Shown here in pieces: positions 7,653 to 43,915 of a DNA stretch of 64,000 nucleotides. Both the position numbers and the translations under genes were made by a program. The DNA lies in the NCBI GenBank assembly GCA_965203135.1, contig CBDBBO010000003.1, positions 266 to 64,265 of the forward strand, given 5' to 3'. Numbering within the stretch: the first letter of the stretch is position 1; each line of letters begins with the position of its first letter. The notes under the pieces were generated by a model that made no database searches, was not told the DNA's origin, and saw only the letters and a program-made list of their open reading frames with translations. The stretch comes from Dehalococcoidia bacterium. GTDB lineage: Bacteria; Chloroflexota; Dehalococcoidia; Lucifugimonadales; CATOSD01.

Positions 7653-10241
7653 ATGAAGCGCTTGGTGGTTACGGCAGCCGTCAGGAAGGAGATGATTGAG
7701 ATAGACCAGTCGACTTTTCTTAGCCGCTGGCTCGCGGTCGTGACGGTTCTGGCCATCGCTGTCGTGCTGAGCGCCTGTAGCGACGACCCGGTTCCCACGC
7801 CGACCGATACGCCAGCCGCAACGCCTGCGACAGTGCATACGCCTACATCGACCGATTCGGCAACCCCCTCACCAATAACCACACCTACGCCAACCCCCGA
7901 ACAGACTCCCGCACCAACTCAGACCGCGACGCCGACTGCAACTCCCTCACCTGTTCCTACAGCCACACCTACGCTTACCCTCGAACCGACTCCCACGCCG
8001 ACTCCAACCCCTGAGCCGACGCCCACACCCACGCCCACTGTAGCGCCTACCACTTCCCTATCTGGTTCTTTCACCGATTCAACCGGTCGGAGGATCCGGT
8101 ATCGGGTCCACTATAATCAAGATTGGGACCTGAGCCAGCCGCGCGGGGCCGTAATCTTCTTTCATGGAAACAGCCGAGGCACCGAGGATGGCATGTTCTG
8201 GGGCCCAGACGAAGACGGGAGCGTACTTCCGCAGGGGCTGTTGTTTGTCCGGGTGGCGTCTCCAGAGTCCGGCGATGATTCTGACCATGCAGGCTCCGAG
8301 ACCAGTCTCTTTGGATACAGGCTGCACAGTGGTGGAATTAGGGGATGGCACGAAGCCGATTTTCGTCTGATCCACGAGCTATTGCAGAGCAACCTGGGAG
8401 GAAATGTCGCCCTTGACAAAGACAAGATCGTTTTTCAGGGAGGTTCTGACGGCACCGGTTTCTTGGCCAGATTCTTGGAGAGGTACTTCACCGTATATGG
8501 TGGCGGTTTTCACGCGTGGTGCGGCTATTTCTGGAACGGGTCCTATTCCCATCCTCCCCGAAAGGCCGCCTCGTGGGCGCCCACTGTTCCGTGGTCCAGG
8601 CACACAGCATCGGCAGTCGCACAACGGATGCGCGTATTCGTGGAAGCCACAACCGAAGACAAACTTCATGACGATGCCGTGGCAATGCGGGACTACTACC
8701 GGGACGTGCTGGGCCTGAACACACGATGGGACCTCGATGCTCCGGGAGGCCATTGTTGGATGGGCGCAACACCAAGACGTTCAATCGTGGAGTGGCTGTC
8801 CGAAACTCCTATCACGCAAGTTGCCGCAGGTACAGTCGCCGACCACGACGGCGACGGGCTGGCGAATGCGCTCGATCCGGACGACGACAATGACGGAGCG
8901 CCGGACATCATAGACGCCTTGCCCTTGGAACCGAGGGACTGGCTCGACACCGATTCAGACGGGACCGGAGACTTCGCCGACCGCGACGCCGACGGTGACG
9001 GCATCGAGAATGCGGCCGACCCGTTCTCCCTGGACCCGACAGAGTGGCGTGACAACGATGAAGACGGAATCGGCGACAACATCGATGTGGACGATGACAA
9101 CGACGGAGTTCCGGACAGCGCCGACCCGGATCCTCTCCGCGGCCCCCGCAACGACCAGCTGACGTTCAAATCTGTCAGTTCGGGGCAGCTTTACCTCACT
9201 TACCAACAGGTTCCATTTGCCCATGTTCACCGCAGCCAACCTGTGTCGATCAAGTACCCGGAGGCGCTCGGAAACCGCCAGTCCTGGCATTCCATCCGTT
9301 TGGGGGATGGGGCCAATCCGGTGTTCGAGATAATGATCGATTCCTACGAGCGCGATGAGTCGTGCGAAGACGTACTCCTCGCCAGGCTGTGCGACGCGCA
9401 GGCGCCCAACTTCTACTACTACGAGCGGTGGTACCACAAGATATACGTCGACAGGAACCGCAATGGGGACTTGACCGATGACGGACCGCCGCTGGTCATG
9501 GCTCGAAACGAGGAGGACCGGGACCATTCCCTTCCCTCGGCCCACGCCATCGTCAAGGTTCCCTATAGCACTGGCGAACTTCTGCCGTACGGGTTGCTCC
9601 TGTACCCGATGGGCGGACCCGAAGACATACGCCTGCGCTACGGGGGCGCAAGCGTGTGGATGGGTCTGGTGTCGGTTCCAGGCGCTGAACCGGTCCTGGT
9701 GGGAACGGTTGATATGAATGTCGACGGGGTGTTCAACACAGGGGAGTTGCGGTACAGCCCCTGGCCTCGCCAGGATGCCAGCATGTTGCAGGACTTTGTT
9801 TGTGTCGATAAGGATCGGGATGGCTGGCTGAGTGAGTGCGATCCTTACGTTGAACCGGAATCCGCCTTTCAACCCGTTTATGCGGACGAGCCGTTTACGT
9901 TAGACGGGCGAACCTACACGCTCGAAATCGCACCCACAGGTCACACGGTGCGTATCCGTGAAGCCTTCTCATCCACCACCCCTGAGCCGACGCCCACTGC
10001 TACTCCCCCACCCGTTGTCGAATCGCCATTGATTGCAACCTTCCTGGACACCCGGATACGCTGCCGCGCCTGGAACGCAGAAGCGAATGCACATAGACCC
10101 CGACACCATGCCGGTAGTCTCAACACGTGGCCCTCACGGAACGACGGCTGCTCGACGCCCAGGGCCGGACGCCGGTCATCGACTCGACGGAGCTGGCGGG
10201 CTGGTCTGCTTCGAGAAGCGGGAGTCCGCAAAGTTTCCTAA
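7653..10241 (+). CDS. Large secreted protein: Pro/Thr linker, alpha/beta-hydrolase-like domain, thrombospondin type-3 (Ca-binding) repeats, C-terminal beta-rich region
   Basis: N-terminal TM/signal LAVVTVLAIAVVLSAC. About 100 aa of PT-rich linker. AVIFFHGNS and QGGSDGTGF (GxSxG). DxDxDGxxDxxD arrays (DHDGDGLANALDPDDDNDGAPD..DTDSDGTGDFADRDADGDGIENAADP..DNDEDGIGDNIDVDDDNDGVPD). The last ~70 codons are Arg-rich and may be out of frame. Confidence 0.7.
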   Translation: MKRLVVTAAVRKEMIEIDQSTFLSRWLAVVTVLAIAVVLSACSDDPVPTPTDTPAATPATVHTPTSTDSATPSPITTPTPTPEQTPAPTQTATPTATPSPVPTATPTLTLEPTPTPTPTPEPTPTPTPTVAPTTSLSGSFTDSTGRRIRYRVHYNQDWDLSQPRGAVIFFHGNSRGTEDGMFWGPDEDGSVLPQGLLFVRVASPESGDDSDHAGSETSLFGYRLHSGGIRGWHEADFRLIHELLQSNLGGNVALDKDKIVFQGGSDGTGFLARFLERYFTVYGGGFHAWCGYFWNGSYSHPPRKAASWAPTVPWSRHTASAVAQRMRVFVEATTEDKLHDDAVAMRDYYRDVLGLNTRWDLDAPGGHCWMGATPRRSIVEWLSETPITQVAAGTVADHDGDGLANALDPDDDNDGAPDIIDALPLEPRDWLDTDSDGTGDFADRDADGDGIENAADPFSLDPTEWRDNDEDGIGDNIDVDDDNDGVPDSADPDPLRGPRNDQLTFKSVSSGQLYLTYQQVPFAHVHRSQPVSIKYPEALGNRQSWHSIRLGDGANPVFEIMIDSYERDESCEDVLLARLCDAQAPNFYYYERWYHKIYVDRNRNGDLTDDGPPLVMARNEEDRDHSLPSAHAIVKVPYSTGELLPYGLLLYPMGGPEDIRLRYGGASVWMGLVSVPGAEPVLVGTVDMNVDGVFNTGELRYSPWPRQDASMLQDFVCVDKDRDGWLSECDPYVEPESAFQPVYADEPFTLDGRTYTLEIAPTGHTVRIREAFSSTTPEPTPTATPPPVVESPLIATFLDTRIRCRAWNAEANAHRPRHHAGSLNTWPSRNDGCSTPRAGRRSSTRRSWRAGLLREAGVRKVS

Positions 10242-16532: not shown

Positions 16533-18899
16533 GTGCCTTCAGACCAACAGGACCGGGAGATCGATGCCCTGCGGGACCGGCTCTCGCGCCTGAGCGAGGC
16601 CAGCCTCCGCATCAACGAGAACCTGGACTTCGACGACCTGCTCCAGGGCGTGGTGGACGGCGCCCGCTCCCTCACCGGCGCCCGCTACGGCGCCCTGACC
16701 GTCTTCGGCGACGAGGGGGAGCTTCCCCACTTCATCGTCTCGGGGATGACCCCCCAGGAGCACCAGGGCTTCTGGGACATGCACGAAGGCATGCGGTTCT
16801 TCGAGTACGTGTCGGGCCAGGAGACGCCCCTGCGGGTGGCCGACTTCGGCGCTCACCTGGAGGCCCTGGGGATGCCCGACTTCCGTCCCCCCGTGCCCGT
16901 CACCTCGTTGCTGATTGCGCCCATCCGCCACCGGGGCGTGGCGACCGGCTCCATCTACCTGAGCGGGGGCGAGGAGGGCGGCGAGTTCACCCGGGAGGAC
17001 GAGGACTCCGTGGTGATGTTCGCCTCCCAGGCGGCGCTGGTCATCGCCAACGCCCGAACCCACCGGGAGGAGCGGCAGGCCCGGGCCGACCTGGAGACGC
17101 TGGTGAACACCTCGCCGGTGGGCGTGGTGGTCTTCGACGCCCATACCGGGCGTATGGCGTCCTTCAACCGGGAGGCGCTGCGCATCGTGGACGGCCTGCG
17201 GGACGACGACCAACCGCCGGAGGCCCTGCTGGAGGTGCTGACATGGGTGCGTTCCGACGGCCGGGAGGCCTCCCTGCGGGAGCTGCCGGCGGCCGAGGCT
17301 CTGAGGGCCGGGGAGACGGTGCGGGCCGAGGAGATCGTGCTGCGGGTCCCTGACGGGCGCAGCGTCAGCGTCCTGCTCAACGCCTCCCCCATCCACTCGG
17401 AGGACGGTCGGCTGGCGTCCTTCATCGTCACCCTGCAGGACATGACGCCCCTGGAGGAGCAGGAGCGGCTGCGGGCAGAGTTCCTGGCCATGGTGAGCCA
17501 CGAGCTGAGGACGCCCCTGGCGGCGGTCAAGGGCTCGATCACCACGCTGCTGGAGGGGGTGGGGGAGCTGGACCCCGCCGAGACGACCCAGTTCCACCGC
17601 ATCATCCGCGACCAGTCGGACCAGATGCGCTCTCTCATCGGCGACCTGCTGGACGTGGCCCGCATCGAGACGGGTTCCCTCCCGGTTGACCCCGAGCCCG
17701 CCAACCTGCGCTCGCTGGTGGATGAGGCAAGCAGCAGGTTGGTGGCCGGAGGCGCGGGGAACGCCCTGGAAGTGGAGCTGGCGGCGGACCTGCCGATGGT
17801 GCTGGCCGACCGGCTGCGCATCGTCCAGGTGCTGGGCAACCTGCTCTCCAACGCAGCCGGGTACTCCCCCGACGGGTCGCCCATCCTGGTGACCGCAGTG
17901 CGGGATGGCGTGCACGTCGCCGTCTCCGTCGCCGACCAGGGCCGGGGCATACCGGCGGAGCTTCTGCCGGGGCTGTTCCGCAAGTTCTCGCGGGCGTCGG
18001 GTGTCGACGGGTCGGGCCTGGGACTCGCGATCTGCAAGGGCATCGTGGAGGCCCACGGGGGCCGCATCTGGGCCGAGAGCGACGGCCCGGGCCTGGGGGC
18101 GCGGTTCACCTTCACCCTGCCGGCGGTGGAGGGCGCGACCTCCGCCCCCGCTCCTGCCTCTCCCGGCGCCCGTCCCGCAGCACGGGTCCGCGTCCTGGCC
18201 GTGGACGACGACCCCCAGGACCTGCGGTACGTCCGAGACGTCCTCGCCAGGGCGGGGTACGCGCCCATCGCCACCGGCGACCCCGCCGACGTGCCCCGCC
18301 TCCTATCAGAGGAGAAGCCCCACCTCGTCCTGCTGGACCTGGTGCTGCCGGGGAGCGACGGTATCGAGCTGATGAACCACATCCGCAAGTCGGCGGACGT
18401 GCCGGTCATATTCCTGTCGATGTACGGCCAGGACGAGACGGTCGCCAGGGCTCTGGACATGGGGGCGGTGGATTACCTGGTCAAGCCCTTCTCGCCGACG
18501 GAGCTTGCGGCGCGGATCAGGGCGGCGCTCAGGAAGCGGCTGGACCCCTTCCAGGCCGAGCCGTCGGGACCCTACGCGGTTGGAGGACTGGGCATCGACT
18601 ACGCGCTGCGCCGGGTGACGGTGGACGGAGAGCCGGTGGAGCTTACGGCCACGGAGTACGCGGTGCTCTACGAGCTTACGGTCCACGCCCCCAGGGTGCT
18701 GACCCACGGCGTGCTGCTCCAGCGGGTCTGGGGTCCGGAGCGCGTGGGCGACGCGTGGCTGGTGCGGGACGTGGTGAGGCGGCTGCGCCGCAAGCTGGGC
18801 GACGATGCGGACAGCCCCACGTACATCATCACCGAGCCCCGCGTCGGCTACCGGACGGCGGTGGGGGAGGCGGGGTCACAGAATCTGAAAGGTTCTTGA
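16533..18899 (+). CDS. Soluble GAF-PAS histidine kinase fused to a receiver and an OmpR-type winged-helix DNA-binding domain
   Basis: No TM segment. GAF-like N-terminus and a PAS-like region. H-box VSHELRTPL. NLLSNAAGYSP, DQGRGIP, GSGLGLAICKGIVEAHGG. Linker APAPASPGARP. REC domain RVLAVDDDPQ..LVLLDLVLPGSDG..DYLVKPFSPTEL. wHTH LTATEYAVLYEL..VRRLRRKLGDD..ITEPRVGYR. Confidence 0.85.
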   Translation: MPSDQQDREIDALRDRLSRLSEASLRINENLDFDDLLQGVVDGARSLTGARYGALTVFGDEGELPHFIVSGMTPQEHQGFWDMHEGMRFFEYVSGQETPLRVADFGAHLEALGMPDFRPPVPVTSLLIAPIRHRGVATGSIYLSGGEEGGEFTREDEDSVVMFASQAALVIANARTHREERQARADLETLVNTSPVGVVVFDAHTGRMASFNREALRIVDGLRDDDQPPEALLEVLTWVRSDGREASLRELPAAEALRAGETVRAEEIVLRVPDGRSVSVLLNASPIHSEDGRLASFIVTLQDMTPLEEQERLRAEFLAMVSHELRTPLAAVKGSITTLLEGVGELDPAETTQFHRIIRDQSDQMRSLIGDLLDVARIETGSLPVDPEPANLRSLVDEASSRLVAGGAGNALEVELAADLPMVLADRLRIVQVLGNLLSNAAGYSPDGSPILVTAVRDGVHVAVSVADQGRGIPAELLPGLFRKFSRASGVDGSGLGLAICKGIVEAHGGRIWAESDGPGLGARFTFTLPAVEGATSAPAPASPGARPAARVRVLAVDDDPQDLRYVRDVLARAGYAPIATGDPADVPRLLSEEKPHLVLLDLVLPGSDGIELMNHIRKSADVPVIFLSMYGQDETVARALDMGAVDYLVKPFSPTELAARIRAALRKRLDPFQAEPSGPYAVGGLGIDYALRRVTVDGEPVELTATEYAVLYELTVHAPRVLTHGVLLQRVWGPERVGDAWLVRDVVRRLRRKLGDDADSPTYIITEPRVGYRTAVGEAGSQNLKGS
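18767..18854 (+). repeat. Left arm of an 88-bp inverted repeat (inside the 3' end of the kinase-regulator gene)
   Basis: Its reverse complement recurs at 19043-19130 with one mismatch (gagccc/gaaccc). Confidence 0.9.
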
Positions 18900-19357: not shown

Positions 19358-20656
19358 GACCTCAAAATCAATGGTTACCGAACGAGAGTTGTGACCTCAA
19401 AATTACGGTTACCGGCGGTGTTCCAGTTTAGGGGGTCTCCACGCCTCCACGCCAGGCCTTGCAGCTTCTCGATCTCTGAGTCGATCTGACGGCTCAGCCA
19501 CAGCGGGTTGAGCGACGCGTACAGCTTCTCGAACACCACCCGCCGAGCACCCACAAGCGCCCCACTCCCGAGCATCCGCCGGTACGGGGTCATACCCTCG
19601 TCGTGCATACGCACCACCCGATCACCCTGTCGACTCTTCCCAATGAGCCGACGCACCGGCTGGAAGAAGTTCGCCTGCAGCCGCGCCAGCGAGTACACCT
19701 GTTGCATCTGCCTGAAGGCCGCGGACGTAGAGTACCGGCTGTGTCCGGTCAGCCGACGCACCACCGCGCCGTTCTTCTGCTCGACGTGCGCGCTGTCGTT
19801 CTTGCGGTACGGCCTGCTCCTTGTGAACGTGATGCCGTTGTTCTCGCAGTAGGCGTACAGACCGCGGTTGATGAACTCAGAGCCGTTGTCCGAGTCCAGC
19901 CCCAGCAGAGGCACCGGCAACCGTCTCCGCATCCTGCGTATCGCAGCACCCACACGCTCCTGCGTCTTGCCCCACACAACGTCCATGTCCACCCATCCCG
20001 TAGCTACGTCCACCGCGGTCACGGTCCACAGGTAGAACCCCTCGGTAGTCGTTCCGCAGTGCGCAACCGTGTCCACCTCCACGAAGCCGGGCCGGGCGTC
20101 GTCCCACTCCCAGTAGGTCCGCACCGGGATGCGGTTCCGAAGCAGAGTCCCTGCCTTGGTAAGGCTGGTCGCTCTCTTCCTCACCGGCGCCTGGTGCGCA
20201 GCCAGCAACCGCTCAAGCGTCGCCGCGCTTGCCCGCCCGAGCCTGGTCTCAATCCAACAGTCCAACTCCAGTTCGCCGAACTCGGCCAGCCGCGACGCCA
20301 GCTCCCCCACGAACGGGTGCAGCCTTCTGGCGCCTATCCCGCCCGCCGCCTCGTGCACCACCCGGACCGCCTCGGCCACCTCCGGACCGTACTCGACCGG
20401 TCTGCCCACGCGCCCTCCCTTACGTTCTCGCCTCCGACCCGACAGGGCTCGTATCGCCGACTTCCTGTGATAGCCGGTCACGGCTTCCACCTCGTCCAGT
20501 ATCTTCCCCTTCTCCTTCTTACCCGCCTTCAGGTACCTCTCCATCTGCCGCTCCAGGTACTCTCGGACGCTCTTTTGGTTCACGGTTACCTCCAGCTTTT
20601 GGGTAACCGTAATTTTGAGGTACATTCTCCACTTCGGTAACCATAATTTTGATGTC
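19358..20656 (-). mobile_element. ~1.3-kb IS element with an rve/DDE transposase (family uncertain, IS481- or ISNCY-like)
   Basis: Each end carries two copies of a ~20-nt motif in inverted orientation. Left end: gacctcaaaatcaatggttacc (19358) and gacctcaaaattacggttacc (19393). Right end: ggtaaccgtaattttgaggt (20602) and ggtaaccataattttgatgtc (20636). Confidence 0.7.
19375..20625 (-). CDS. DDE (integrase-core, rve) transposase
   Basis: N-terminal HTH region. Catalytic candidates FVEVDTVAH, LGLDSDNGSEF, SAHVEQKNG. The start is uncertain (20658, 20625 or 20583). Confidence 0.8.
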   Translation of the reverse strand: MYLKITVTQKLEVTVNQKSVREYLERQMERYLKAGKKEKGKILDEVEAVTGYHRKSAIRALSGRRRERKGGRVGRPVEYGPEVAEAVRVVHEAAGGIGARRLHPFVGELASRLAEFGELELDCWIETRLGRASAATLERLLAAHQAPVRKRATSLTKAGTLLRNRIPVRTYWEWDDARPGFVEVDTVAHCGTTTEGFYLWTVTAVDVATGWVDMDVVWGKTQERVGAAIRRMRRRLPVPLLGLDSDNGSEFINRGLYAYCENNGITFTRSRPYRKNDSAHVEQKNGAVVRRLTGHSRYSTSAAFRQMQQVYSLARLQANFFQPVRRLIGKSRQGDRVVRMHDEGMTPYRRMLGSGALVGARRVVFEKLYASLNPLWLSRQIDSEIEKLQGLAWRRGDPLNWNTAGNRNFEVTTLVR

Positions 20657-20793
20657 ATGCGCCCCCTTGAAGTCTCCGCACACCCGTGCTATCCTCCGTT
20701 CTGCAATGGACTGACCCTGCGACTGGCGACCTCGGACACCGGGATTGGGACCTCTCGTCGGACTGTTCTATTTCTGTCGATTTTGCGGCTTTA

Positions 20794-21607
20794 CTAGGTA
20801 GTGTTGACATTTCATCTTAGCCATATGAGAGCGCCTGTGAAATGGAGGAACCCGAGGTACCTGTTCGCCAGTTTATCGAATCGGGAGAAGATGCGGCGGA
20901 AGTGCTTGATCTTACCGATGAAACACTCGACAAGATGACGCTCTCGGTACAGGTACTCATCGTATGAGTGCGGCGCCCTTCTGTTGGAGCGAGACGGAAT
21001 CACCGGGACAGCCCCATTGTCGACGACCAACTCGCGAACGTGATCGGCGTCGTATGCCCGGTCGGCTATCACATGCTCACTCTCGGTACCGGATATGAGT
21101 TCGGCAGCTTGAGTCACATCGTGCTCTTGTCCTGCGGTCAGCGTAAATCTCAAGGGATTGCCCAGACCATCGACACTCACGTGGACCTTTGTAGAGAACC
21201 CGCCCCGACTTCGACCGAGGGCTTGGGACGCTTGCCCACCGTTTTTTTGGGTGCGCCAGCGGCAGAATGATGGGCCCGCACTACGGTGCTGTCGATGATG
21301 AGGTTCTCCATGTCGGGGTCATCGACAAAATACTGATGCATACGTTCCCATATCCCATGATCGCACCATCGGGCGAACCGTTTGTAGATGCTGTTCCAAT
21401 TGCCATATTCGGCTGGGAGCATCCTCCACTGCGCACCAGTCCGAGCAATCCACAAGACGGCCTCGATGAAACGCTTGCAATCGGCTTCCTTTCCGACGTA
21501 CAAATCGGGCTGGCTACGAAGAAACTCCAGCACCTTTGGCCACTGTTCGGGAGATAGTGTGACTGTTGACATATACCTAGTATAATGCAAATGTCAACAC
21601 TACCTAG
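20794..21607 (-). mobile_element. IS5-family (IS427/IS1031-group-like) insertion sequence, ~0.8 kb
   Basis: 19-nt perfect terminal inverted repeats: ctaggtagtgttgacattt (20794) and aaatgtcaacactacctag (21589). CTAG is present at both extremities. Confidence 0.85.
20812..21572 (-). CDS. IS5-family transposase OrfAB, made by programmed -1 frameshift
   Basis: OrfA reads ..AVLWIARTGAQWRMLP..YKRFARW... An A7 slippery run (plus-strand t7 at 21242-21248) is present. The -1 frame reads KKNGGQASQALGRSRGGFSTKVHVSVDGLGNP..ADRAYD..RHLVECFIGKIKHFRRI. Confidence 0.85.
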
Positions 21608-21731
21608 CCCAATCCATGCTTATCAGCGCCTCCAGCCGGAGCGCCCGGCGAGCTTCCCAGCTATGAGGTGGAACGGAACGCAACGAAATGCAACGAAATG
21701 CAACGAAGTTTCCGCCTGGGAGGAGAAGACG

Positions 21732-22619
21732 ATGGCCGATCCCATACTTGTAGATGCCCACATGCACATAACCGAGTCCAGGGAGAAGGGCCGGGTCCGA
21801 AAGCAGACCTACGAGATCTGGGAGTACGGCGAGAAGTCCGACGTGAAGTACAGCGCCTACGACGGGATCGTCGAGGACGCGCTGGACGCCATGAACGAGG
21901 CCGGATTCTCCAAGGCCGTGGTGGTGAACCTGTTCGGCTCGGGCAGTCCGGCCTTCGAGAGGGGCCCGGCTCTTGCCGACGAGCTGAGGGCATTCAACAG
22001 GTGGGGATGCGACACCGCGGCCCCTCACGACAGCCTCGTCCCGTACATCAACGTCGACCCTCACATCTTTTCGGGCGATGAAATGTCTGCCCACATTCTC
22101 GACATGGTGGAGAATCACGGCGCCGGAGGCGTGAAGCTGCATCCGGTGCTCCAGCGCTTCGAGCTGGGCGACCCGAGGATGACTCCGGCCTACCGAACGT
22201 GCATCGAGCTTGGGATACCCGTCCTGTCCCACTCAGGCCCGGCCAGGGACGGAAGCGCTTTCGGCACGCCAAAGGCGTTCGCTCCGCTGCTGGAGAACTT
22301 CCCGGACCTGACAGTGGTCATCGCACATCTCGGCGGTGGAGCCTGGACGGAGGCGCTGGAAGTTGCGCGGGTGTTCCCGCACGCCGCTTTCGATTGCTGC
22401 GAGATCATGGAATGGCTGGGAGGCTCCAGCGCCCCGACCTATGAGCAGCTAGGCAGGCTCATAAAGGACATAGGGCCCGAGCGGGTGGTCATGGGGTCGG
22501 ACTTCCCCTGGTACGACCTCGACCGCAGCGTCGAGATCGTAATGGGGCTGCCGCACCTGGCGCGCGAGGAAAAGGAGGCTATGCTGGGAGAAAACGCGAT
22601 CAGGATCATGGGCCTGTAG
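21732..22619 (+). CDS. Amidohydrolase-2 (TIM-barrel metal hydrolase/decarboxylase) family protein
   Basis: GGGAGGAG RBS. ILVDAHMHI, GVKLHP, VLSHSG, IAHLGGG, MGSDFPW. The ORF-track start 21585 lies inside the IS5 inverted repeat and was rejected. Confidence 0.75.
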   Translation: MADPILVDAHMHITESREKGRVRKQTYEIWEYGEKSDVKYSAYDGIVEDALDAMNEAGFSKAVVVNLFGSGSPAFERGPALADELRAFNRWGCDTAAPHDSLVPYINVDPHIFSGDEMSAHILDMVENHGAGGVKLHPVLQRFELGDPRMTPAYRTCIELGIPVLSHSGPARDGSAFGTPKAFAPLLENFPDLTVVIAHLGGGAWTEALEVARVFPHAAFDCCEIMEWLGGSSAPTYEQLGRLIKDIGPERVVMGSDFPWYDLDRSVEIVMGLPHLAREEKEAMLGENAIRIMGL

Positions 22620-22636: not shown

Positions 22637-23395
22637 ATGCCCGGAAAACTCGACGGCAAGGTGAGCATCGTAACCGGCGGCGGCTCCGGCATAGGCCGCG
22701 GCACGGCCCTGCTGTTCGCCGCTGAAGCCTCTAAGGTCGTCGTCGCCGACGTCGATGACCGGGGCGGCGAGGAGACCGTCGTGCTCATCGGCGAATCGGG
22801 CGGGGACGCCCTGTTCGTCCGCACCGACGTCTCGCAATCACCGCAGGTGCGCGACATGGTGCAGAAGACCATCGAACACTACGGAAGGCTCGACCTGCTC
22901 ATCAACGTCGCTGGCCGGCAGGCGGAGGTTCCTCACCTCATCGACGTTACCGAGGAGGAGTGGGACCTGGTCATGGACGTGAACCTGAAGGGAATCTTCC
23001 TGGCGTGCAAGTACGCTGTTCCCCACATGCTGGATCAGGGCGGCGGCGCCATAGTGAACGTCGCCTCGTCGGTGGTGCTGAGAGGGTCCTCGTTCTCGCT
23101 TCCCTACTCCGTCAGCAAGGCGGGCGTGGTGCAGCTCACCAAGACCGTCAGCAGCCAGTACGCATCCCGCGGCATCCGCTCAAACTGCGTGGTTCCCGGG
23201 CTTGTCGACACGCCGGGCTCGCAGGGTGTGGAGGGCGCGGCGGGGGTGTTCGACGAGGCGGTGGCCAGGATACCCGTGGGCCGGGCCGGTGTGCCTGAGG
23301 ACGTCGCCAGGCTCATTCTCTATCTCGCTTCGGATGATGCCGCCTACGTGAGCGGATCCGCTTACGTCATCGACGGCGGCAGGAACGTGCAATAG
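22637..23395 (+). CDS. Short-chain dehydrogenase/reductase (SDR)
   Basis: TGGGSGIGRG cofactor motif, NVAG, catalytic YSVSKAG, PGLVDTP. Confidence 0.9.
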   Translation: MPGKLDGKVSIVTGGGSGIGRGTALLFAAEASKVVVADVDDRGGEETVVLIGESGGDALFVRTDVSQSPQVRDMVQKTIEHYGRLDLLINVAGRQAEVPHLIDVTEEEWDLVMDVNLKGIFLACKYAVPHMLDQGGGAIVNVASSVVLRGSSFSLPYSVSKAGVVQLTKTVSSQYASRGIRSNCVVPGLVDTPGSQGVEGAAGVFDEAVARIPVGRAGVPEDVARLILYLASDDAAYVSGSAYVIDGGRNVQ

Positions 23396-23467: not shown

Positions 23468-25495
23468 ATGAGCACCACCACTGACGACGTGACAAGCCGA
23501 ACGCTGAGTCTGCCGGAAGAACTCATTCTCATGCTTCTCAACGATGAGAACGGGTACTTCCACCAGGTGCCCGGCTGGAACCTGAACTGCGCCGTCGCGG
23601 GGGCAGTGTTGGCCGAGCTTTCGCTGCGAAACCGCATAGATACCGACGCCGAATCCCTGTTCCTGGTGGACTTGACTCGTACGGGCGACCCTGTTCTCGA
23701 CCCCTTCCTGGACGAAATCATCTCCGAGCCTGACGAGCGCAACGCCCAGTACTGGATCGAACGCCTGGCTCCGCGCTCCGAGTCGGTGATCGACGAGACC
23801 CTGGAGCGCATGGTCTCGCTGAACATCCTCGACGCGCACGACGGGGATTTCTGGACTGTTTCCAACAAGGCCGGGACCTCGGATATGTTCCAGACGACCG
23901 CGGGCGACGAGGAAGGCGGATTCGTCAGAAACCGCATCAGAAGCGCTATCTTCGAGGACCGCATACCGGACCCCAGGGACATCATACTGATATGCCTCAT
24001 CAACACGTGCGACGTCTTCCGCTTCATCTTTCAGCTTGACGAAGTGGCGGAGGAGAGAATCCGCTTCTATTGCAACATCGACCTGCTTGGCCGCTCGATG
24101 GCCGCCGCCGTGTCTGAGAGCCTGACCGTCCCGTTTTTGCGGTACTCGGTCCTGGCCAAGAAGATACCGAACGTCCCACTGCGCAAGCTGCTGCTCAACC
24201 ACAACCTGCGCGCCGGCAATATCCCGGCGCTGTTCGCGGACCTTACCGACGAGTACGGTCCGGTGTTTCGCGTCAAACCGCCGTTTTCTCCGGCCATGAC
24301 CTTCCTTGCGGGCCCAGAGACGAACCATTGGGTGAACCGCAACGGACGAATGTACCTGCGGGCCAAGGACTACTTTTCGGACTTCGAGCAGGTCTACGGC
24401 GCCCACGGAGTGCTGCCCTCCCTGGACGGCGGCGACCACTTCCGGCTTCGCAAGTCCCTGCAGGCGTCGTATTCGCGCGGCCGGCTACTTGCGCACCTGG
24501 AAGGGGTCTACAGCCAGGCCCGTGCGTTCATGGCCGACTGGCAGGTGGGGCATTCCTACCAGGCCACCACCTTGTGCCGGCTTATGATCAACGCGCAGAT
24601 TTCTCCTATCAAGATAGGCGTCGATTCGCAGGACCTCATCGACGACCTCATCAAGTACAAGGAACGCGCCCTCACCACGCACGTCATGAGGGCGCTCCCC
24701 AAGTTCATGCTGAAGACGCCCGGGATGCGAAGGCGGGCGAAGAAGATCGATACGCTGGTGGAACGGGTGCAGAGCGTCCACACGCCCGCCCAGCGCGCCG
24801 GGCAGCCCCGCGACCTCGCGGACGACCTGCTGAGCCTGCATGGCAGCGACCCTCAGCTGGTGCCGGAGTCGAACCTGCGCTTCGCGCTGTCGGCCGCGCT
24901 CGTCGCCAGCGTCTATCTCGGAGACGCCTTCAGCTTCGCCCTCTACGCCATGGCGTCGCAGCCCGAACTCTACGAGAAACTCCAGGCGGAGGCCGATGGC
25001 CTGTTCGGAGACGGCGACCCGGGGCGCGACGAATTTACGCTGGAGGCCATAGACGTTACGCACCGATTCCTGATGGAATGCCTGCGAGTGTACCCCATCG
25101 TACCCATGTCTATACGCAACGTCATGAATTCGTGCGTGGTGGAGGGCTACGAGCTGCCGGTTGGCGAACGGCTTTTCATAGCTCAGACCGCTACGCACTA
25201 CATGGCAGAGTGTTTCCCCGAACCGCTCAAATTCGACGTCGACCGCTACCAGCACCCGCGCAACGAGCATCGCGGCCCCGGTTACGCCCCCTACGGTCTG
25301 GGAACTCACAGGTGTCTCGGCTCGCGCTGGATGGACCTCCAACTGGCCGTTAACGTGCTGATGGTCGCCCACTACTTCGACATCAGGGTGTCGCCGAGCG
25401 ACTACAAGCTACGATACAGCCCCATACCCTCGCAGAAGCCGAACAAGAAGCTCAGGTTCCGCATTGCCGAACGGAGGCGCGAGATACCGGCCTGA
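23468..25495 (+). CDS. GPP34 (GOLPH3/VPS74-like) domain fused to a cytochrome P450
   Basis: N-terminal ~210 aa: LSLPEELILMLLNDENGYF..AVAGAVLAELSL..I (bacterial GPP34 pattern). C-terminal ~460 aa: EXXR (ECLR), haem loop YGLGTHRCLGSRW. The I-helix reads LVASVYLGDAFSF and lacks the usual AGx(D/E)T(T/S). Confidence 0.75.
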   Translation: MSTTTDDVTSRTLSLPEELILMLLNDENGYFHQVPGWNLNCAVAGAVLAELSLRNRIDTDAESLFLVDLTRTGDPVLDPFLDEIISEPDERNAQYWIERLAPRSESVIDETLERMVSLNILDAHDGDFWTVSNKAGTSDMFQTTAGDEEGGFVRNRIRSAIFEDRIPDPRDIILICLINTCDVFRFIFQLDEVAEERIRFYCNIDLLGRSMAAAVSESLTVPFLRYSVLAKKIPNVPLRKLLLNHNLRAGNIPALFADLTDEYGPVFRVKPPFSPAMTFLAGPETNHWVNRNGRMYLRAKDYFSDFEQVYGAHGVLPSLDGGDHFRLRKSLQASYSRGRLLAHLEGVYSQARAFMADWQVGHSYQATTLCRLMINAQISPIKIGVDSQDLIDDLIKYKERALTTHVMRALPKFMLKTPGMRRRAKKIDTLVERVQSVHTPAQRAGQPRDLADDLLSLHGSDPQLVPESNLRFALSAALVASVYLGDAFSFALYAMASQPELYEKLQAEADGLFGDGDPGRDEFTLEAIDVTHRFLMECLRVYPIVPMSIRNVMNSCVVEGYELPVGERLFIAQTATHYMAECFPEPLKFDVDRYQHPRNEHRGPGYAPYGLGTHRCLGSRWMDLQLAVNVLMVAHYFDIRVSPSDYKLRYSPIPSQKPNKKLRFRIAERRREIPA

Positions 25496-25510
25496 CCCGC
25501 AAGCCGGAGT

Positions 25511-35184: not shown

Positions 35185-35385
35185 ATGAAGCTGAGCGTGG
35201 ACAAGGAAGCGGACGCCCTGTACCTCCGCCTCGACGACTCTCAAATAGTCGAGTCCGAAGAGGTTTCGCCGGGTGTTGTGCTCGACTTTAATGAGGCAAA
35301 CGAAGTGGTTGGAGTGGAGATGCTGAACCTCTCGAAGCGCTCGTCCAGCCTCAATCTGTCGGCGCTGCAATTCGAGGCGGTTTGA
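35185..35385 (+). CDS. DUF2283-family small protein
   Basis: MKLSVDKEADALYLRLDD..VVLDFNEANEVVGVEMLN, the characteristic DUF2283 pattern. Alternative starts at 35167 and 35173. Confidence 0.7.
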   Translation: MKLSVDKEADALYLRLDDSQIVESEEVSPGVVLDFNEANEVVGVEMLNLSKRSSSLNLSALQFEAV

Positions 35386-35460
35386 GCGCCGGCCGGGAAA
35401 TCTTTGAACCGCTTCTCTTGTCTCGTTTTCGCGGTGGGAAAGCGGGTTGGCGAGGGTCTG

Positions 35461-36117
35461 ATGGGGATTACGATAGCCGAGATGGAGGGCAGGCGCGCCC
35501 AGGAGATCGCGGATGAGTGGCGGTCGCGGGGTTATGAGGTGGCGATTGGACCTACTCAAGAGCAGTTGCCGCCATTCCTCGCCGGGTTCAGCCCTGACCT
35601 TCTGATGAAAAAAGGGGACAGGGCAATCGTCGTCGAAGTGAGGTCAAGGCCCACTATGGAGAAGGAGGGCCGTCCGTCCGGGCTTGCGGCCGCGTTGGAA
35701 GAGAGGCCCGGATGGACCTACTGGTTGTCGCAGGTGAACGTGGGCGAGCAGCTCAGGGTGCCGAAGGGCGTTCGCGCGTTTACGCGGGAGGATGTGCTGG
35801 ATTGCGCGGCGCAATCGGAGCGGTTGCTGGAGGCGGGTTTCGCGGACGCGGCGTTCGTGCAGGCTTGCGCCGCCGCGGTTGGGGCGGTGAGGATTCTGCT
35901 GGACGAGGAGGGGGAGTTGCTGGGCAGGCCGCCGTCGGAGCACGCTATCTCCCAGGCTACGCACGAGGGCATCATATCGAGTGAGTGCTACTTTTTGCTG
36001 ACGGACGCGGTGAGCAGGCGGGACGCGCTGGTGAACGGGTTTGGGTTGGACGAGACGGACGCGGATGCGGTGCGGGAGGTGGTGGACGCGGCGCGGCGGC
36101 TGTTGGAGGAGGAGTGA
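35461..36117 (+). CDS. Hypothetical protein: PD-(D/E)xK-like N-terminal domain and HEPN-like helical C-terminal domain
   Basis: E..(helix)..SPDLLMKKGDRAIVVEVRS resembles an E/PD/ExK nuclease core. The C-terminal helices end in SRRDALVNGF, which aligns with the HEPN RNxLxHG motif with Asn in place of His. Assignment is by eye only. Confidence 0.4.
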   Translation: MGITIAEMEGRRAQEIADEWRSRGYEVAIGPTQEQLPPFLAGFSPDLLMKKGDRAIVVEVRSRPTMEKEGRPSGLAAALEERPGWTYWLSQVNVGEQLRVPKGVRAFTREDVLDCAAQSERLLEAGFADAAFVQACAAAVGAVRILLDEEGELLGRPPSEHAISQATHEGIISSECYFLLTDAVSRRDALVNGFGLDETDADAVREVVDAARRLLEEE

Positions 36118-36291
36118 CGGGTCGTAAGCGTTCGCAATGGGCAACCGAGGTAGCGCGGATGTGCGGGGGTAGATGCAAGAATCTTCCTGGAAACGGTGTG
36201 AGTCCACTAGCCTCCCTTGGCCTGAGCAACCTTCTCTGAGTCAAGTTACAGTACGTGTGGGCAAGAAAGCTGCTGATTATTAGGTGGAGAA

Positions 36292-37029
36292 TTGCTTCGA
36301 ACACTACCGCATCGAGTCAAGCAAGGGTTGAGAGGGTCATTCAGGGCCCTGTTCGGAATTGACCTCAGATTTGCTGACAACTACAACCACGATGAAATGA
36401 CTTACGAGGGAGACTCTTGGTATACGAGGCGCCTTCTTCACTTTGAACAACTGCTGAGGCGGGTAGAAGATGTCGACGGCAGAATCGTAGAGTGCGGAGT
36501 AGGCCCAGGTCGTTCCATCTTTGCATTTTCGATCCTTACCCAGACGGTCACACGCTCCCGTGAGATATGGGGTTATGACACGTTTGAAGGTATGCCGCCG
36601 CCAACAGTTGAAGACGGAGAAGTAAACGCAGGACATGAGGGCGTCTGGAGTTACTCGCGACGTAGGGTAAGCGCGCTTCTGGAATTCAATGGTGTAGACC
36701 GGTCCTTTATAGAGAACCAGATAAGGTTCAATGCTGGAAAATTGGAAGATACGCTTCCAGACTACGACGGCGAACCCATTGCGTTTCTTCACCTAGATGT
36801 CGACTTCTACAGCTCGTACAAGGTGGCCTTGGAACAGCTTTGGCCGCATGTAGCCACGGGTGGAGTCGTGGCGTTCGATGAATACAAGATGACAATATGG
36901 CCGGGAGCCACACAGGCGATCGATGAGTTCTTTTGCTCACGGCAAGAAACGTTGTCGAAGTCCGCGTTGATTGACCTCTACTACGTGGTCAAGCAGGGTT
37001 CGAATAGTGAGTCACAGTTACTGCAATAA
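36292..37029 (+). CDS. TylF/MycF-like SAM-dependent O-methyltransferase, paralogue 1
   Basis: IVECGVGPGRS..YDTFEGMPPP..FLHLDVDFYSSYK..GGVVAFDEY..WPGATQAIDEF. TTG start. Confidence 0.75.
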   Translation: MLRTLPHRVKQGLRGSFRALFGIDLRFADNYNHDEMTYEGDSWYTRRLLHFEQLLRRVEDVDGRIVECGVGPGRSIFAFSILTQTVTRSREIWGYDTFEGMPPPTVEDGEVNAGHEGVWSYSRRRVSALLEFNGVDRSFIENQIRFNAGKLEDTLPDYDGEPIAFLHLDVDFYSSYKVALEQLWPHVATGGVVAFDEYKMTIWPGATQAIDEFFCSRQETLSKSALIDLYYVVKQGSNSESQLLQ

Positions 37030-37125
37030 TGGGTACCGTATGAAAGCCTACCTTGACCTGAGCAACCTCCTCGGGGTTAAGCTACTGTGTGTAGGCGAGA
37101 AAGCTGCTGATTATCAGGTGGAGAA

Positions 37126-37866
37126 GTGCTTCGACGACTTCCTTATCGGTTCAAACAGGCGTTAAGAAGATCATTCAGGGAGCTGTTCGGCATAGACTTG
37201 CGCTTTGCCGACCTTTACGAGCTTGAGGACCTCACTTACAAAGGCGATGATTGGTACGTCAGGCGGTTGCTTCATTTCGAGCGGCTGTTGGCAAAGGTCG
37301 AGCACATTGACGGCAATATCGTCGAGTGTGGCGTCGGGCGAGGGACGTCCTTGTTCGCCTTTGGGATGCTCACTCAAACGGCTGTCCGGTCCCGCCAGAT
37401 CTTGGGCTTCGACACCTTTCGCGGGCTGCCGGAGCCATCCGTCGAGGACGGCGACTGGAACGCTAATCACGCTGGAGCGATGAGCTACTCCCAGCGCTAC
37501 GTGCGCAAGGTGCTTCAGGTAAACGGCCTGCCGCGAGAGTTCATCGACGAGTATGTGACACTAGTGCCCGGCGAATTCAAGGACACGTTGCCACTGTACT
37601 CAAGTGGCCCCATTGTGCTGATTCACATGGACATCGACTTCTATGAGTCGTACAGGGCAGTCTTCAAGCACCTTTGGTCTCACGTGGTGCGCGGTGGGGT
37701 AGTGGCATTTGACGAGTACGCCGCGCCGGACTGGCCGGGCGCAACACAGGCTGTGGACGAATTCGTCTGTACACGAGCCGAGGTAGTAGAGAAGTCGTCC
37801 GTGATCGATCGGTACTATGTCATCAAGCAATGTGAACTGAATTGCAGTGAGTGTGCCAATGAGTGA
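37126..37866 (+). CDS. TylF/MycF-like SAM-dependent O-methyltransferase, paralogue 2
   Basis: IVECGVGRGTS..FDTFRGLPEP..LIHMDIDFYESYR..GGVVAFDEY..WPGATQAVDEF. GTG start. Confidence 0.75.
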   Translation: MLRRLPYRFKQALRRSFRELFGIDLRFADLYELEDLTYKGDDWYVRRLLHFERLLAKVEHIDGNIVECGVGRGTSLFAFGMLTQTAVRSRQILGFDTFRGLPEPSVEDGDWNANHAGAMSYSQRYVRKVLQVNGLPREFIDEYVTLVPGEFKDTLPLYSSGPIVLIHMDIDFYESYRAVFKHLWSHVVRGGVVAFDEYAAPDWPGATQAVDEFVCTRAEVVEKSSVIDRYYVIKQCELNCSECANE

Positions 37867-39331
37867 TCTTTACCAGCGGCCGCCAGTTGTGTGCAAGTTA
37901 CCAGTAGTCGCGTATCCCGAGTTTCCTTACAGACCCCCGGAACGCTATCCAGAGTTCGGCACTCGCTCAATGGTGACCGACGAAGACAATGACGTGTACC
38001 GGGCGGTGCGCGAGGTCCTGGGCAGCCTCGGCTTGCACGCCACACACTACGGAACTTCGTCCTGGAATCCGTTTGGCAGCTTCCTCAGACCTGGCCAGCG
38101 TGCACTCCTAAAGCCCAACTGGGTGCTTCACGCTAACCACTTGGACGGTTCAATCAAATCGCTGTTGACTCATGCTTCCATTTTACGAGTGCTGCTAGAT
38201 TACCTTGTGCTCGCTCTGGAAGGGCGCGGCGCTGTTGACATTGCCGATGCGCCCCTTCAGGGTTGCGACTTTGAGGAGCTGAAACGCCGCACCAGAATCG
38301 AAGAACTACTGGACTTGTATCGTGAGGAGTTTCCTGGTATCAGCTTCAGTGTGATAGATCTGAGGAAAGTCACCTTTACGCCGAGAGAGCGCAGGGCGTC
38401 CAACGTGGGGACGCAGGCTGGACAGGAGGGAGACCCGCGCGGTTACACCCTAATCGACCTTGCTGAAGACAGCCTTCTCACCGACTTAGAAGACAGGTCT
38501 AAGCGGTTCAGGGTTACAATGTACGACCATCGGTTGATGAACCGCCGGCACACTCGTGGTAGGCACCAGTACCTGGTATCAAACTCTGTCTTGGACGCGG
38601 ACTTCGTTGTCAACGTGCCCAAGCTGAAGACCCACATCAAGGCGGGCATAACCGGCGCGCTCAAGAACCTTGTTGGCATCAACGGGCACAAGGAGTACCT
38701 GCCGCACCACATCAATGGGTGGCCGGGGAGTGGCGGGGACCAGTACGCGCGTCGCAGCGTGGTGAAGCCTATCTACAACGTGCTGTACGACAGGCGGTGG
38801 CGGGGCCACTCCAGCGGTGGAGTGGCGACACTCGCCCAAGCCTCGGTTCTAAGAACGCTCGCCAAGGCCTCCAGATTAGCCAGGGATGACCACATGTATG
38901 ACGGCGGATGGTCAGGAAACGACACAATACCCAGGACCACTATCGACCTTAATCATGCGCTCTATTTCTACCGCCAGGACATTCTTGGGCTTTCGACAAC
39001 CCCAGTTAGAAATGTCCTGAGCATCGTCGATGGTGTGGTTGCTGGAGAGGGCTACGGGCCGCTGTGGCCGACTGCCAAACCAGCGGGCGTTGTCATAGGC
39101 GGCTGGAATCCGCTAGCGATAGATACTCTCGGCGCGATGCTGATTGGTTATGACCCCATGAAGGTGCGGCTGCTCAAATACGGATTCGGACATCCGAAGA
39201 GTCTGCTTGCCCGCATCAGCCCAAGATTGCACGAACTTGAAATGACAGTGGACAGCGTCACCATGCCCATGGCGCGCACCGAGTCCATGTCATTCACGCT
39301 GCCAGAGGAATGGGAAGATGCTTCTGTCTGA
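37847..39331 (+). CDS. DUF362-domain protein
   Basis: ALLKPNWVL and PKLKTHIKAGITGALKNLVGING match the DUF362 signature pattern. Alternative start at 37859. Confidence 0.6.
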   Translation: MSVPMSDLYQRPPVVCKLPVVAYPEFPYRPPERYPEFGTRSMVTDEDNDVYRAVREVLGSLGLHATHYGTSSWNPFGSFLRPGQRALLKPNWVLHANHLDGSIKSLLTHASILRVLLDYLVLALEGRGAVDIADAPLQGCDFEELKRRTRIEELLDLYREEFPGISFSVIDLRKVTFTPRERRASNVGTQAGQEGDPRGYTLIDLAEDSLLTDLEDRSKRFRVTMYDHRLMNRRHTRGRHQYLVSNSVLDADFVVNVPKLKTHIKAGITGALKNLVGINGHKEYLPHHINGWPGSGGDQYARRSVVKPIYNVLYDRRWRGHSSGGVATLAQASVLRTLAKASRLARDDHMYDGGWSGNDTIPRTTIDLNHALYFYRQDILGLSTTPVRNVLSIVDGVVAGEGYGPLWPTAKPAGVVIGGWNPLAIDTLGAMLIGYDPMKVRLLKYGFGHPKSLLARISPRLHELEMTVDSVTMPMARTESMSFTLPEEWEDASV

Positions 39332-40661: not shown

Positions 40662-40702
40662 GTTTCTGCTTGGACCCAAACAGATAGTCTTGTGAGGTTG
40701 AA

Positions 40703-41809: not shown

Positions 41810-41815
41810 ATTATC

Positions 41816-41850
41816 CACGAAGGGCACGAAGGGGCACGAAGGGGGAAGGG
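41816..41850. repeat. Tandem cacgaagg(g) x3 microrepeat running into gggggaaggga
   Basis: cacgaagggcacgaaggggcacgaagggggaaggga, read directly. Confidence 0.7.
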
Positions 41851-41868
41851 ATAGGGCGGCGCGTGGCG

Positions 41869-42039
41869 TTACGTTCGCAGCAGGATTGTGACGATGACGG
41901 CGAGCTGGGAGAGGGCGAACGTGACGCCAAAGGCCAGCACGGCGCGTGTGATCCGGTCGAGGCGGGCTTCGAGTGCGTCGAAGCGGGCGTCGAGTGCGTC
42001 GAAACTGGCGGCGATGGTGGCGTCGTGGGGCGAGTGCAT
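41869..42039 (-). CDS. Tail-anchored coiled-coil miniprotein (56 aa)
   Basis: FDALDARFDALEARLDRI followed by the C-terminal TM AVLAFGVTFALSQLAVIVTILLRT. Paralogue of the gene 7 nt upstream. Confidence 0.5.
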   Translation of the reverse strand: MHSPHDATIAASFDALDARFDALEARLDRITRAVLAFGVTFALSQLAVIVTILLRT

Positions 42040-42046
42040 AGTGGCG

Positions 42047-42316
42047 TTATGATCGCAGCACGACTGTGACGATGAGCGCGACCTGGGAGAGCGCGAAGGT
42101 GACGCCCAGGCCCAGCATGGCGAGTATGAGCCGGTCGATACGCGCGTTGACCGCATCGATGCGGGCGCTGAGTGTGTCGATGCGGGCGTCGACTGCGTCG
42201 AAGCGCGTGTTGACTGCGGCAAGGCCTTGCCGGAGGTCTTCTCGCAGTCCGGCGATGGTGGCGGCGTGCTCGGCGGTGCGCCCTTCGAGCACGCCGAGGC
42301 GGGATTCGGTAGTCAT
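42047..42316 (-). CDS. Tail-anchored coiled-coil miniprotein (89 aa)
   Basis: Heptad-like RFDAVDA-RIDTLSA-RIDAVNA-RIDRL, then the TM LILAMLGLGVTFALSQVALIVTVVLRS. Confidence 0.55.
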   Translation of the reverse strand: MTTESRLGVLEGRTAEHAATIAGLREDLRQGLAAVNTRFDAVDARIDTLSARIDAVNARIDRLILAMLGLGVTFALSQVALIVTVVLRS

Positions 42317-42501
42317 GGGGCGGCCCCTTTCGCCGTCAGTATAGCAGAAACGGCGTGGGGAAAGGTCGGGGCGAGTGGAGTGCAGGGGCTTTAGATTCCT
42401 CGGCTCCGCTGCGCTGCGCTCGGAATGGCGGGGAAAGCGCCGGGGGAAGGGACAAGTGGTATGCTGTGGATGGCTAATGTCACGAAAGGAGGAACTGAGG
42501 C

Positions 42502-43902: not shown

Positions 43903-43915
43903 GGGCGCGGGCTGC

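Follow-up and report, generated by a model that had tools for sequence, protein, structure and literature searches.

What does a domain with the fold of the Golgi protein GOLPH3 do at the front of a bacterial cytochrome P450? The question is raised by a gene in a 64,000-nucleotide stretch of DNA from a Dehalococcoidia bacterium (Chloroflexota; assembly GCA_965203135.1, contig CBDBBO010000003.1, positions 266 to 64,265), which we refer to as the window. At positions 23468–25495 of its + strand, exactly the coordinates given by a first-pass annotation made from the sequence alone, lies an open reading frame (ORF) of 675 amino acids that joins a GPP34 (GOLPH3/Vps74-fold) domain to a P450 domain. 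Based on its relatives and their gene neighbourhoods, we favour, with moderate confidence, a role as an intracellular oxygenase that tailors a sterol or sterol-like molecule; the pump encoded beside it would handle the substrate or the product. The gene is a real, new member of a published, uncharacterised GPP34–P450 family. What the present analysis adds to that earlier description is an I-helix that lacks threonine, is derived and is invariant within its clade, a GPP34 domain in which the pocket for phosphatidylinositol 4-phosphate (PI4P) is missing, and a conserved neighbourhood of sterol-type genes.

The fusion protein and its I-helix

In Pfam scans, the GPP34 domain matched residues 15–201 (23510–24070, + strand; PF05719, E = 8e-30, 104.8 bits against a cut-off of 29.1) and the P450 domain residues 247–645 (24206–25402, + strand; PF00067, E = 6.1e-32, 111.4 bits against a cut-off of 22.8). 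The first-pass annotation had read the first ~210 residues as GPP34 and the remainder as a P450 with an EXXR motif and a cysteine haem loop. Both assignments hold: the PF05719 score is far above the gathering score, the predicted fold of this part matches GOLPH3/Vps74 only, and the P450 motifs are conserved, as described below. A homology search found both domains on more than 120 homologous clusters of ~675 amino acids at 68–89% identity, of which the named ones are called simply 'cytochrome P450'.

The search for the fused architecture, which that annotation had recommended, also led to a published family. The fusion has been described as GPP34_L (Ferreira et al., 2025, Microbiome 13:4; PMC11706023), a set of 656 proteins with GPP34 and P450 domains that were found only in sponge symbionts, span 16 phyla and are expressed in situ. 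They have the same architecture as the window protein, with an N-terminal GPP34, a C-terminal P450 and a length of ~675 amino acids, and their host range is that of its closest relatives, namely Dehalococcoidia and other metagenome-assembled genomes (MAGs) from sponges. GPP34 proteins were proposed in that study to be secreted, PI4P-binding effectors that block phagosome maturation. The flanking genes were examined for the short GPP34 form only and not for the long form, the P450 catalytic motifs and PI4P pocket residues of GPP34_L were not examined, and the text makes no mention of sterols, steroids or methyltransferases (PMC11706023). Besides this paper, our literature search found none that connects GPP34 with a bacterial P450. 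No second GPP34 or P450 was found elsewhere within the 64-kb window.

The closest relative of the window protein, at 91% identity, comes from a Dehalococcoidia MAG, and the closest relatives in general are MAGs with sponge-type bin names. At 66–70% identity, relatives occur in MAGs of Latescibacterota, Binatia, Acidimicrobiia, Gemmatimonadota, Opitutales, Arenicellales and Rhodospirillaceae, which implies horizontal transfer combined with strong constraint. Among 241 million metagenome records, 18 loci were found, every one of them from sponge projects (few projects in all); three of the contig prefixes are labelled Petrosia, Sarcotragus and Aplysina in the supplement of Brown et al. (2023). 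The window also contains a run of ORFs with fn3, cadherin-like and thrombospondin type-3 (TSP3) repeats at 838–6434 and 7653–10241 (+ strand), proteins of the 'eukaryotic-like' kind that sponge symbionts typically encode.

The haem-binding elements of the P450 are conserved in an alignment of 80 orthologues. Glu and Arg of the EXXR motif E537-C-L-R540 (25076–25087, + strand) are invariant (80/80), and the haem ligand C616 is kept in 79/79 within the loop Y-G-L-G-T-H-R-C616-L-G (25292–25321, + strand), the G-L-G-x-H-x-C-L-G pattern of which is conserved. The same is true of a PERF-like motif, F-D-[IV]-D-R-Y. The I-helix is where the protein departs from the canonical form: A-G-x-(D/E)-T-(T/S) is replaced by A480-S-V-Y483-L484-G-D486 (24905–24925, + strand). 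In two independent CYP51 structure alignments, A480-S-V-Y-L-G485 aligns with A-G-(Q/H)-H-T-S, so that Y483 stands where the acid or His would be and L484 takes the place of Thr. The spacing between I-helix and EXXR is 53–54 residues, compared with 52–53 in canonical relatives, and an intermediate relative reads A-G-H-Y-T, which agrees with L484 at the Thr position. Given this spacing and this relative, a one-residue gap that MAFFT placed in the I-helix was discarded as an alignment artefact. The acid-alcohol pair is thus absent, as the first-pass annotation had claimed, and the mis-registered Thr that it had named as its own possible error was looked for and not found, the register being the same by the CYP51 alignments, the EXXR spacing and the A-G-H-Y-T relative.

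The pattern A-S-[VA]-Y-L-G-D does not vary among the close relatives (80/80), and sponge-metagenome relatives as distant as 56% identity still carry A-[SA]-x-Y-[LMV]-G-D. The wider superfamily was surveyed by an exhaustive search of 50%-identity representatives, which returned ~48 full-length fused clusters at 26–59% identity and stand-alone P450s at 28–38%. Most of these members have the canonical A-G-(L/I)-D-T, CYP51-like A-G-H-Y-T is seen in a few, and A-[SA]-x-Y-[LIV]-G occurs only in the clade of the window protein. Since most other fusions carry A-G-x-D-T, the Thr-less I-helix does not go with the fusion as such but is a derived innovation of one clade that later became fixed.

The A/G-G-x-D/E-T-T/S motif is typical of the P450 superfamily and not obligatory. 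P450s without the I-helix Thr include CYP74, CYP8A/5A, CYP152, EryF and CYP710/CYP61, and we know of no match to A-S-x-Y-L-G-D among such families. A CYP152 peroxygenase is not supported, the score on NF053744 being 16.6 bits against a cut-off of 600 bits. CYP74 carries an insertion in the Cys loop; the window P450 has no such insertion, its loop being of canonical length compared with the AGxDT relatives. The nearest solved P450s are CYP51s (E ~1e-19, identity ~16–21%). CYP51, including the M. capsulatus CYP51–ferredoxin fusion, is the best match among solved P450s in both sequence and fold, a sterol-related genomic context is common to CYP51 and the window P450, and the I-helix of the intermediate relative is CYP51-like. 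The two differ in that identity is ~20%, that the I-helix has His-Thr in CYP51 and Tyr-Leu here, and that the partner fused to the M. capsulatus enzyme is a redox domain, whereas that of the window P450 is not. Membership of CYP51 is excluded by an identity well under the at least 40% that P450 nomenclature expects within a family, and by the replacement of the signature A-G-Q-H-T-S with Tyr-Leu. The altered proton-relay site would favour specialised chemistry, such as desaturation, C–C cleavage or a substrate-assisted or peroxo-type oxidation, over ordinary hydroxylation, and the invariant Tyr-Leu variant is a target for mechanistic work on P450s.

A conserved neighbourhood of sterol-type genes

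The most informative evidence came from the gene neighbourhood, a survey of which had been suggested in the first-pass annotation. De novo clustering of flanking ORFs in 79 genomic loci revealed four recurrent partners. An MMPL/RND pump with matches to the sterol-sensing domain and the Patched SSD is present in 64/79 loci, an oxygenase with Rieske and KshA_C domains in 60/79, a methyltransferase with a Sterol_MT_C domain in 59/79 (in 56 of them within two genes, with a typical gap of ~40 bp) and an FAD amine-oxidase-like oxidoreductase (PF01593) in 42/79. At least one partner was found in 76/79 loci and at least three in 48/79. The association recurs in the 18 independent sponge-metagenome loci and in an alphaproteobacterial MAG for which the Pfam calls had been precomputed by others. 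In Latescibacterota and Gemmatimonadota, an AcrB-type RND gene, the fusion gene and the methyltransferase gene follow each other on one strand with overlaps or with gaps of 5–41 bp, an arrangement that looks like an operon. Among the GPP34–P450 clades, it is the Thr-less one that is coupled with methyltransferase, Rieske and RND genes.

The adjacent methyltransferase scored 57.5 bits on PF08498 (Sterol_MT_C) against a cut-off of 21.7 and also matched Methyltransf_11 and CMAS. PF08498 was found on all 120 of its relatives among the matches listed, and a homology search returned only near-identical, uninformatively named proteins. By its domain content, the fusion-adjacent gene classes as a putative sterol methyltransferase (ERG6/SMT; hereafter SMT). 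The FAD partner resembles the phytoene-desaturase/HpnE superfamily. In six loci, an ERG4/ERG24 sterol reductase (130 bits) lies near the fusion gene, and in 14 loci (for example L010, L012, L016, L018 and L022) the Rieske gene is followed by an MFS transporter and an LppX/LprAFG-type (LprG-like) lipoprotein, a pair that recalls the mycobacterial LprG–P55 lipid-export pair.

In the window, the pump and the Rieske oxygenase are both present. The MMPL/RND transporter with its sterol-sensing-domain-like region (25511–27976, − strand) is convergent with the fusion gene, the two stop codons being 15 bp apart, and matched MMPL (E = 1.3e-42), Sterol-sensing (52.6 bits) and Patched SSD (42.9 bits) in Pfam. 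Next to it lies the KshA-like Rieske non-haem-iron oxygenase (28048–29103, − strand), which has 351 amino acids from a refined start at a TTG codon at 29103, matches Pfam Rieske and KshA_C, and has intact C-x-H…C-x-x-H and D-x-x-H-x4-H motifs. Its best PDB match is KshA (E = 1.7e-20), aligned over the N-terminal ~165 residues; an identity as SdmA was rejected (NF052579, 33.8 bits against a cut-off of 600 bits). Upstream of the fusion gene and on the same strand are a classical short-chain dehydrogenase/reductase (SDR; 22637–23395, adh_short_C2, E = 2.4e-62), 72 bp away, and, upstream of that, an Amidohydrolase_2-family gene (21585–22619, PF04909, E = 5.1e-28). These two are lineage-specific: close relatives of them at this position are limited to the five nearest loci. 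An ORF with an rve integrase core (19375–20658, − strand), of the transposase/insertion sequence type, precedes the amidohydrolase–SDR–fusion run by about 1 kb, and the GC content dips to 0.59 at 20–22 kb. Farther upstream, a hybrid regulator (16533–18899, + strand) combines GAF, PAS, HisKA, HATPase, receiver and Trans_reg_C domains in one polypeptide; a relative with 57% identity lies near the fusion gene in one other locus only (L068).

Most relatives carry an SMT gene of ~1.05 kb at the junction downstream of the fusion gene. In the window, this junction (25459–25517) consists of ~60 bp in place of a ~1.1 kb SMT segment in the 91%-identical locus L001. The gene is present at the same junction in the relatives with 89–91% identity (L001–L003) and cleanly absent here, so that loss of the SMT in the window's lineage, leaving a core of fusion, pump and Rieske genes, is the parsimonious reading.

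SMT genes of sponge symbionts have been described before, in clusters of the type OSC–CYP51–ERG24(–SMT–sdmAB), where the CYP51 is ~31% identical to ERG11 and sdmA is 44–47% identical to MCA1016 (Kelly et al., 2022; Brown et al., 2023). In vitro, eight of ten sponge-symbiont SMT homologues methylate desmosterol (Brown et al., 2023), which supports reading the methyltransferase next to the fusion as a sterol enzyme. Those clusters and the fusion module occur in the same microbiomes, share the Sterol_MT_C family of SMTs and show evidence of horizontal transfer between phyla. They differ in gene content: OSC, a true CYP51, ERG24 and sdmA/sdmB belong to the clusters and are all missing from the fusion module, and the module has an RND pump, the GPP34 fusion and a Rieske oxygenase that is not SdmA. 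The 'CYP51' of Kelly et al. and the 'ERG11' of Brown et al. are not the fusion gene under another name, as they belong to OSC–CYP51–ERG24 clusters with sdmA/B present and a CYP51 alignment of ~1.7 kb.

The sterol-type families in these neighbourhoods (Sterol_MT_C, KshA_C, the sterol-sensing domain, ERG4/24 and 3Beta_HSD) support a sterol as the substrate. An intracellular, sterol-tailoring enzyme is further supported by the CYP51s as nearest solved structures and by the window protein itself, in which no signal peptide, transmembrane helix or hydrophobic segment was found. We picture a haem-thiolate enzyme, belonging to the GPP34_L proteins of sponge symbionts, that is located in the cytoplasm, probably at the periphery of the membrane, and would act on a sterol or a sterol-like triterpenoid supplied by the host or synthesised by the symbiont itself. 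The MMPL/RND pump may move the substrate or the product. The enzyme would belong to a horizontally spread module that contains the pump and the KshA-like Rieske oxygenase and, in most relatives, also a putative sterol C-24-type SMT and the FAD oxidoreductase.

Several observations weigh against this picture. The P450 is only ~20% identical to CYP51, and the Foldseek matches of the full-length AlphaFold2 model are generic P450s. That model, made with 63 sequences, has a mean predicted local distance difference test (pLDDT) score of 68.8, with residues 298–338 and 379–471 below 50, which is too weak for the domain interface, the active-site geometry or the orientation of Tyr483. Neither an SMT nor an FAD oxidoreductase was found within the 64-kb window, and the same holds for the MFS transporter and the LprG-like partner. 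The 80 flanks contain no conserved ferredoxin-like small ORF or reductase. The pump has NCBIfam matches to HAE3, HpnN-like (111 bits) and BstA-like models, all below cut-off, and resembles the hopanoid transporter HpnN, so the lipid could be a non-sterol terpenoid. The genomic sample is biased to Chloroflexota (65/79 loci). No fusion-adjacent SMT in our loci is among those assayed by Brown et al. (2023), and 0/18 of our metagenome contigs are on their contig list.

The lack of a conserved ferredoxin or reductase in the flanks speaks for the likeliest alternative, which follows the view of the first-pass annotation and in which the protein is a P450 independent of redox partners (a peroxygenase, a lipid-peroxide isomerase or dehydratase, or similar) held at a membrane by GPP34. 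The loss of the acid-alcohol pair and the invariance of the motif that replaces it fit such an enzyme as well, and it would be compatible with a sterol substrate. We consider it unlikely all the same: the CYP152 score is at the level of a generic fold, the Cys loop is of the same length as in the AGxDT relatives, and tethering to anionic head-groups is contradicted by the pocket residues and charge of the GPP34 domain, described below. Moreover, several Thr-less P450s, EryF among them, work as normal monooxygenases that depend on O2 and NAD(P)H, and bacterial P450s often use redox partners that are encoded elsewhere.

The resemblance of the pump to HpnN raises the question of whether the module acts on another isoprenoid, such as a hopanoid, a carotenoid or a different triterpenoid, with the 'SMT' methylating some other olefinic lipid. 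The phytoene-desaturase/HpnE-like FAD partner and the CMAS score of the methyltransferase point the same way. This is improbable in our view, given the Sterol_MT_C match throughout the listed methyltransferase relatives, the ERG4/24 and 3β-HSD genes in the neighbourhoods, the CYP51s as nearest solved P450s and the action of most tested sponge-symbiont SMT homologues on sterols.

Ranked just behind it, and likewise improbable, is steroid catabolism, in which host sterols would be imported and degraded as a carbon source, comparable to the actinobacterial CYP125/KshA system. A KshA-like Rieske oxygenase and an MMPL pump do adjoin the P450, and the window's lineage adds the SDR and the amidohydrolase. 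Against this, the most tightly linked partner is an SMT of biosynthetic type, ERG4/24 reductases lie nearby, the similarity of the Rieske protein to KshA is confined to the N-terminal part, and a non-exhaustive search of the annotated conserved flank clusters found no ring-cleavage or beta-oxidation-like gene.

The GPP34 domain and the PI4P pocket

Structure prediction and comparison with GOLPH3, another check put forward in the first-pass annotation, confirmed for the N-terminal domain the GOLPH3/Vps74 fold, which is all-helical with a β-hairpin. An AlphaFold2 model of residues 1–232, made with a diverse alignment, had a pLDDT of 84.2 and a predicted template modelling score (pTM) of 0.83. 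All eight PDB matches below E = 1e-3 were GOLPH3/Vps74 (best E = 4.5e-9), with template modelling (TM) scores of 0.59–0.70 in Foldseek and 0.70 for the best match. Profile comparison agreed (hhalign with the diverse profile, 97.6% probability, E = 3.6e-12).

The fold is shared with the eukaryotic proteins and the ligand-binding residues are not. We take the PI4P pocket of human GOLPH3 to be formed by W81, R90, R171 and R174 (Wood et al., 2009). By phmmer alignment to 3kn1 and by hhalign with both the shallow and the diverse profile, R90, R171 and R174 fall on residues 44, 105 and 108 of the window protein. (Of the GOLPH3 sequence used, the first ~103 residues were matched to the alignment printout, and the numbering was verified.) These three positions read V/A/I/T/M, E/D and I/V, with a basic residue in 0/79 members. 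W37 is conserved in 79/79 and equals GOLPH3 W81 in two of three alignments, being two residues off in the third. The net charge of the GPP34 domain averages −20 (range −24 to −14), compared with 0 for the GOLPH3 core, and that of the P450 half averages +7. This split in charge (~−20 and ~+7) could reflect an intramolecular or partner-docking role. The domain is thus like GOLPH3/Vps74 in its fold (TM 0.66–0.70) and in a Trp at or near W81, and unlike these eukaryotic, PI4P-binding Golgi adaptors in being bacterial, fused to an enzyme and without R90, R171 and R174.

With three of the four pocket residues missing and a charge of about −20, PI4P binding by this domain is unlikely, as far as can be judged from its sequence. 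The first-pass annotation had suggested that the fusion tethers the P450 to a membrane or a lipid head-group, and such a tether through PI4P or an anionic head-group is not supported. We infer instead that the domain would be a protein or lipid adaptor and not a reader of phosphoinositides. On this view, enzymes that modify lipids may use the GOLPH3 fold as an accessory module.

The same data challenge the one function that has been proposed in print for bacterial GPP34 proteins: a secreted PI4P-binding effector that blocks host phagosome maturation, with the P450 as an accessory (Ferreira et al., 2025), fits the genuine GOLPH3/Vps74 fold, the reported confinement of an in situ expressed, 16-phylum family to sponge symbionts, the exclusive origin of the metagenome matches in sponge projects and a P450 that, without its proton-relay pair, might in principle need no redox partner from the bacterium. 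For this protein the effector model is very unlikely, in view of the pocket arginines replaced in 79/79 members, the net charge, the missing signal peptide and a set of partners (a pump in the cytoplasmic membrane, a reductase-requiring Rieske oxygenase and a methyltransferase that depends on S-adenosylmethionine) that indicate an intracellular pathway, and that lay outside a study in which neither the long-form flanks nor sterols feature (PMC11706023).

Canonical paralogues and the rest of the window

Relatives of the fusion with a canonical I-helix (AGxDT) sit in other tailoring contexts (L102–L106). At L102, the neighbours are a Sulfotransfer_1 gene and an Inositol_P-family phosphatase; another locus has Acyl_transf_3 and an EryCIII-like glycosyltransferase, another PhyH, Acyl_transf_3 and Sulfotransfer_1, and a further one a 3Beta_HSD–sulfotransferase fusion, ERG4/ERG24, three PhyH genes and an MFS transporter. 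L102 is probably on the same Latescibacterota chromosome as the Thr-less copy L069, the two contigs being identical in length (5,747,750 bp). Together, the canonical loci may form a route by which sponge symbionts sulfate, acylate or glycosylate steroids, and the GPP34–P450 superfamily as a whole looks like a radiation of steroid-type lipid-tailoring enzymes.

A broader and more tentative proposal, which we regard as possible and no better than that, is that a GPP34–P450 toolkit for sterol remodelling has spread horizontally among sponge symbionts of at least seven named lineages. The canonical paralogues would add the hydroxyl groups at which sterols are then sulfated, acylated or glycosylated, the Thr-less clade would carry out non-hydroxylating chemistry (side-chain desaturation, C–C cleavage or rearrangement) before or after the adjacent SMT, and GPP34 would be a new module for docking to the substrate or the transporter. 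If this is true, bacteria and not the sponge shape part of the unusual sterols of sponges, including side chains that are relevant as biomarkers. The origin of these sterols is debated, especially that of the 24-isopropyl and 26-methyl side chains, which are used as the oldest animal biomarkers. What bears on the debate here is a second, putative SMT family that is widespread in sponge symbionts and physically linked with the GPP34–P450 fusion, a steroid-type Rieske oxygenase and lipid pumps. The module comes down to four or five defined genes, which could be expressed and fed with sterols.

Elsewhere in the window, an MPAB_Lcp_cat ORF (53169–54335, + strand) encodes a putative haem oxygenase of the mpaB/rubber-oxygenase type, which acts on isoprenoid chains, and is another candidate for an isoprenoid- or lipid-oxidising enzyme. 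A scan of all 64 kb with ARAGORN detected neither tRNA nor tmRNA genes. The region 32000–48000 has a positive GC skew of up to 0.29 and a GC content of up to 0.73, and holds a polysaccharide-type cluster, mostly on the + strand, with three GT4 glycosyltransferases, two UDP-glucose/GDP-mannose dehydrogenases, an asparagine synthase and a DUF362 protein. An ORF of 872 amino acids in this region (32555–35173, − strand) has UDP-glucose dehydrogenase domains at residues 445–855; its N-terminal ~440 residues are without a Pfam match, so that the ORF may have been called too long in this GC-rich DNA or may begin with a novel domain. Two tandem TylF-like genes (macrocin O-methyltransferase family) of nearly equal length follow at 36292–37029 and 37126–37866 (+ strand), preceded by an ORF with an AHJR-like restriction-endonuclease fold (35404–36117), where the local GC content falls to 0.55.

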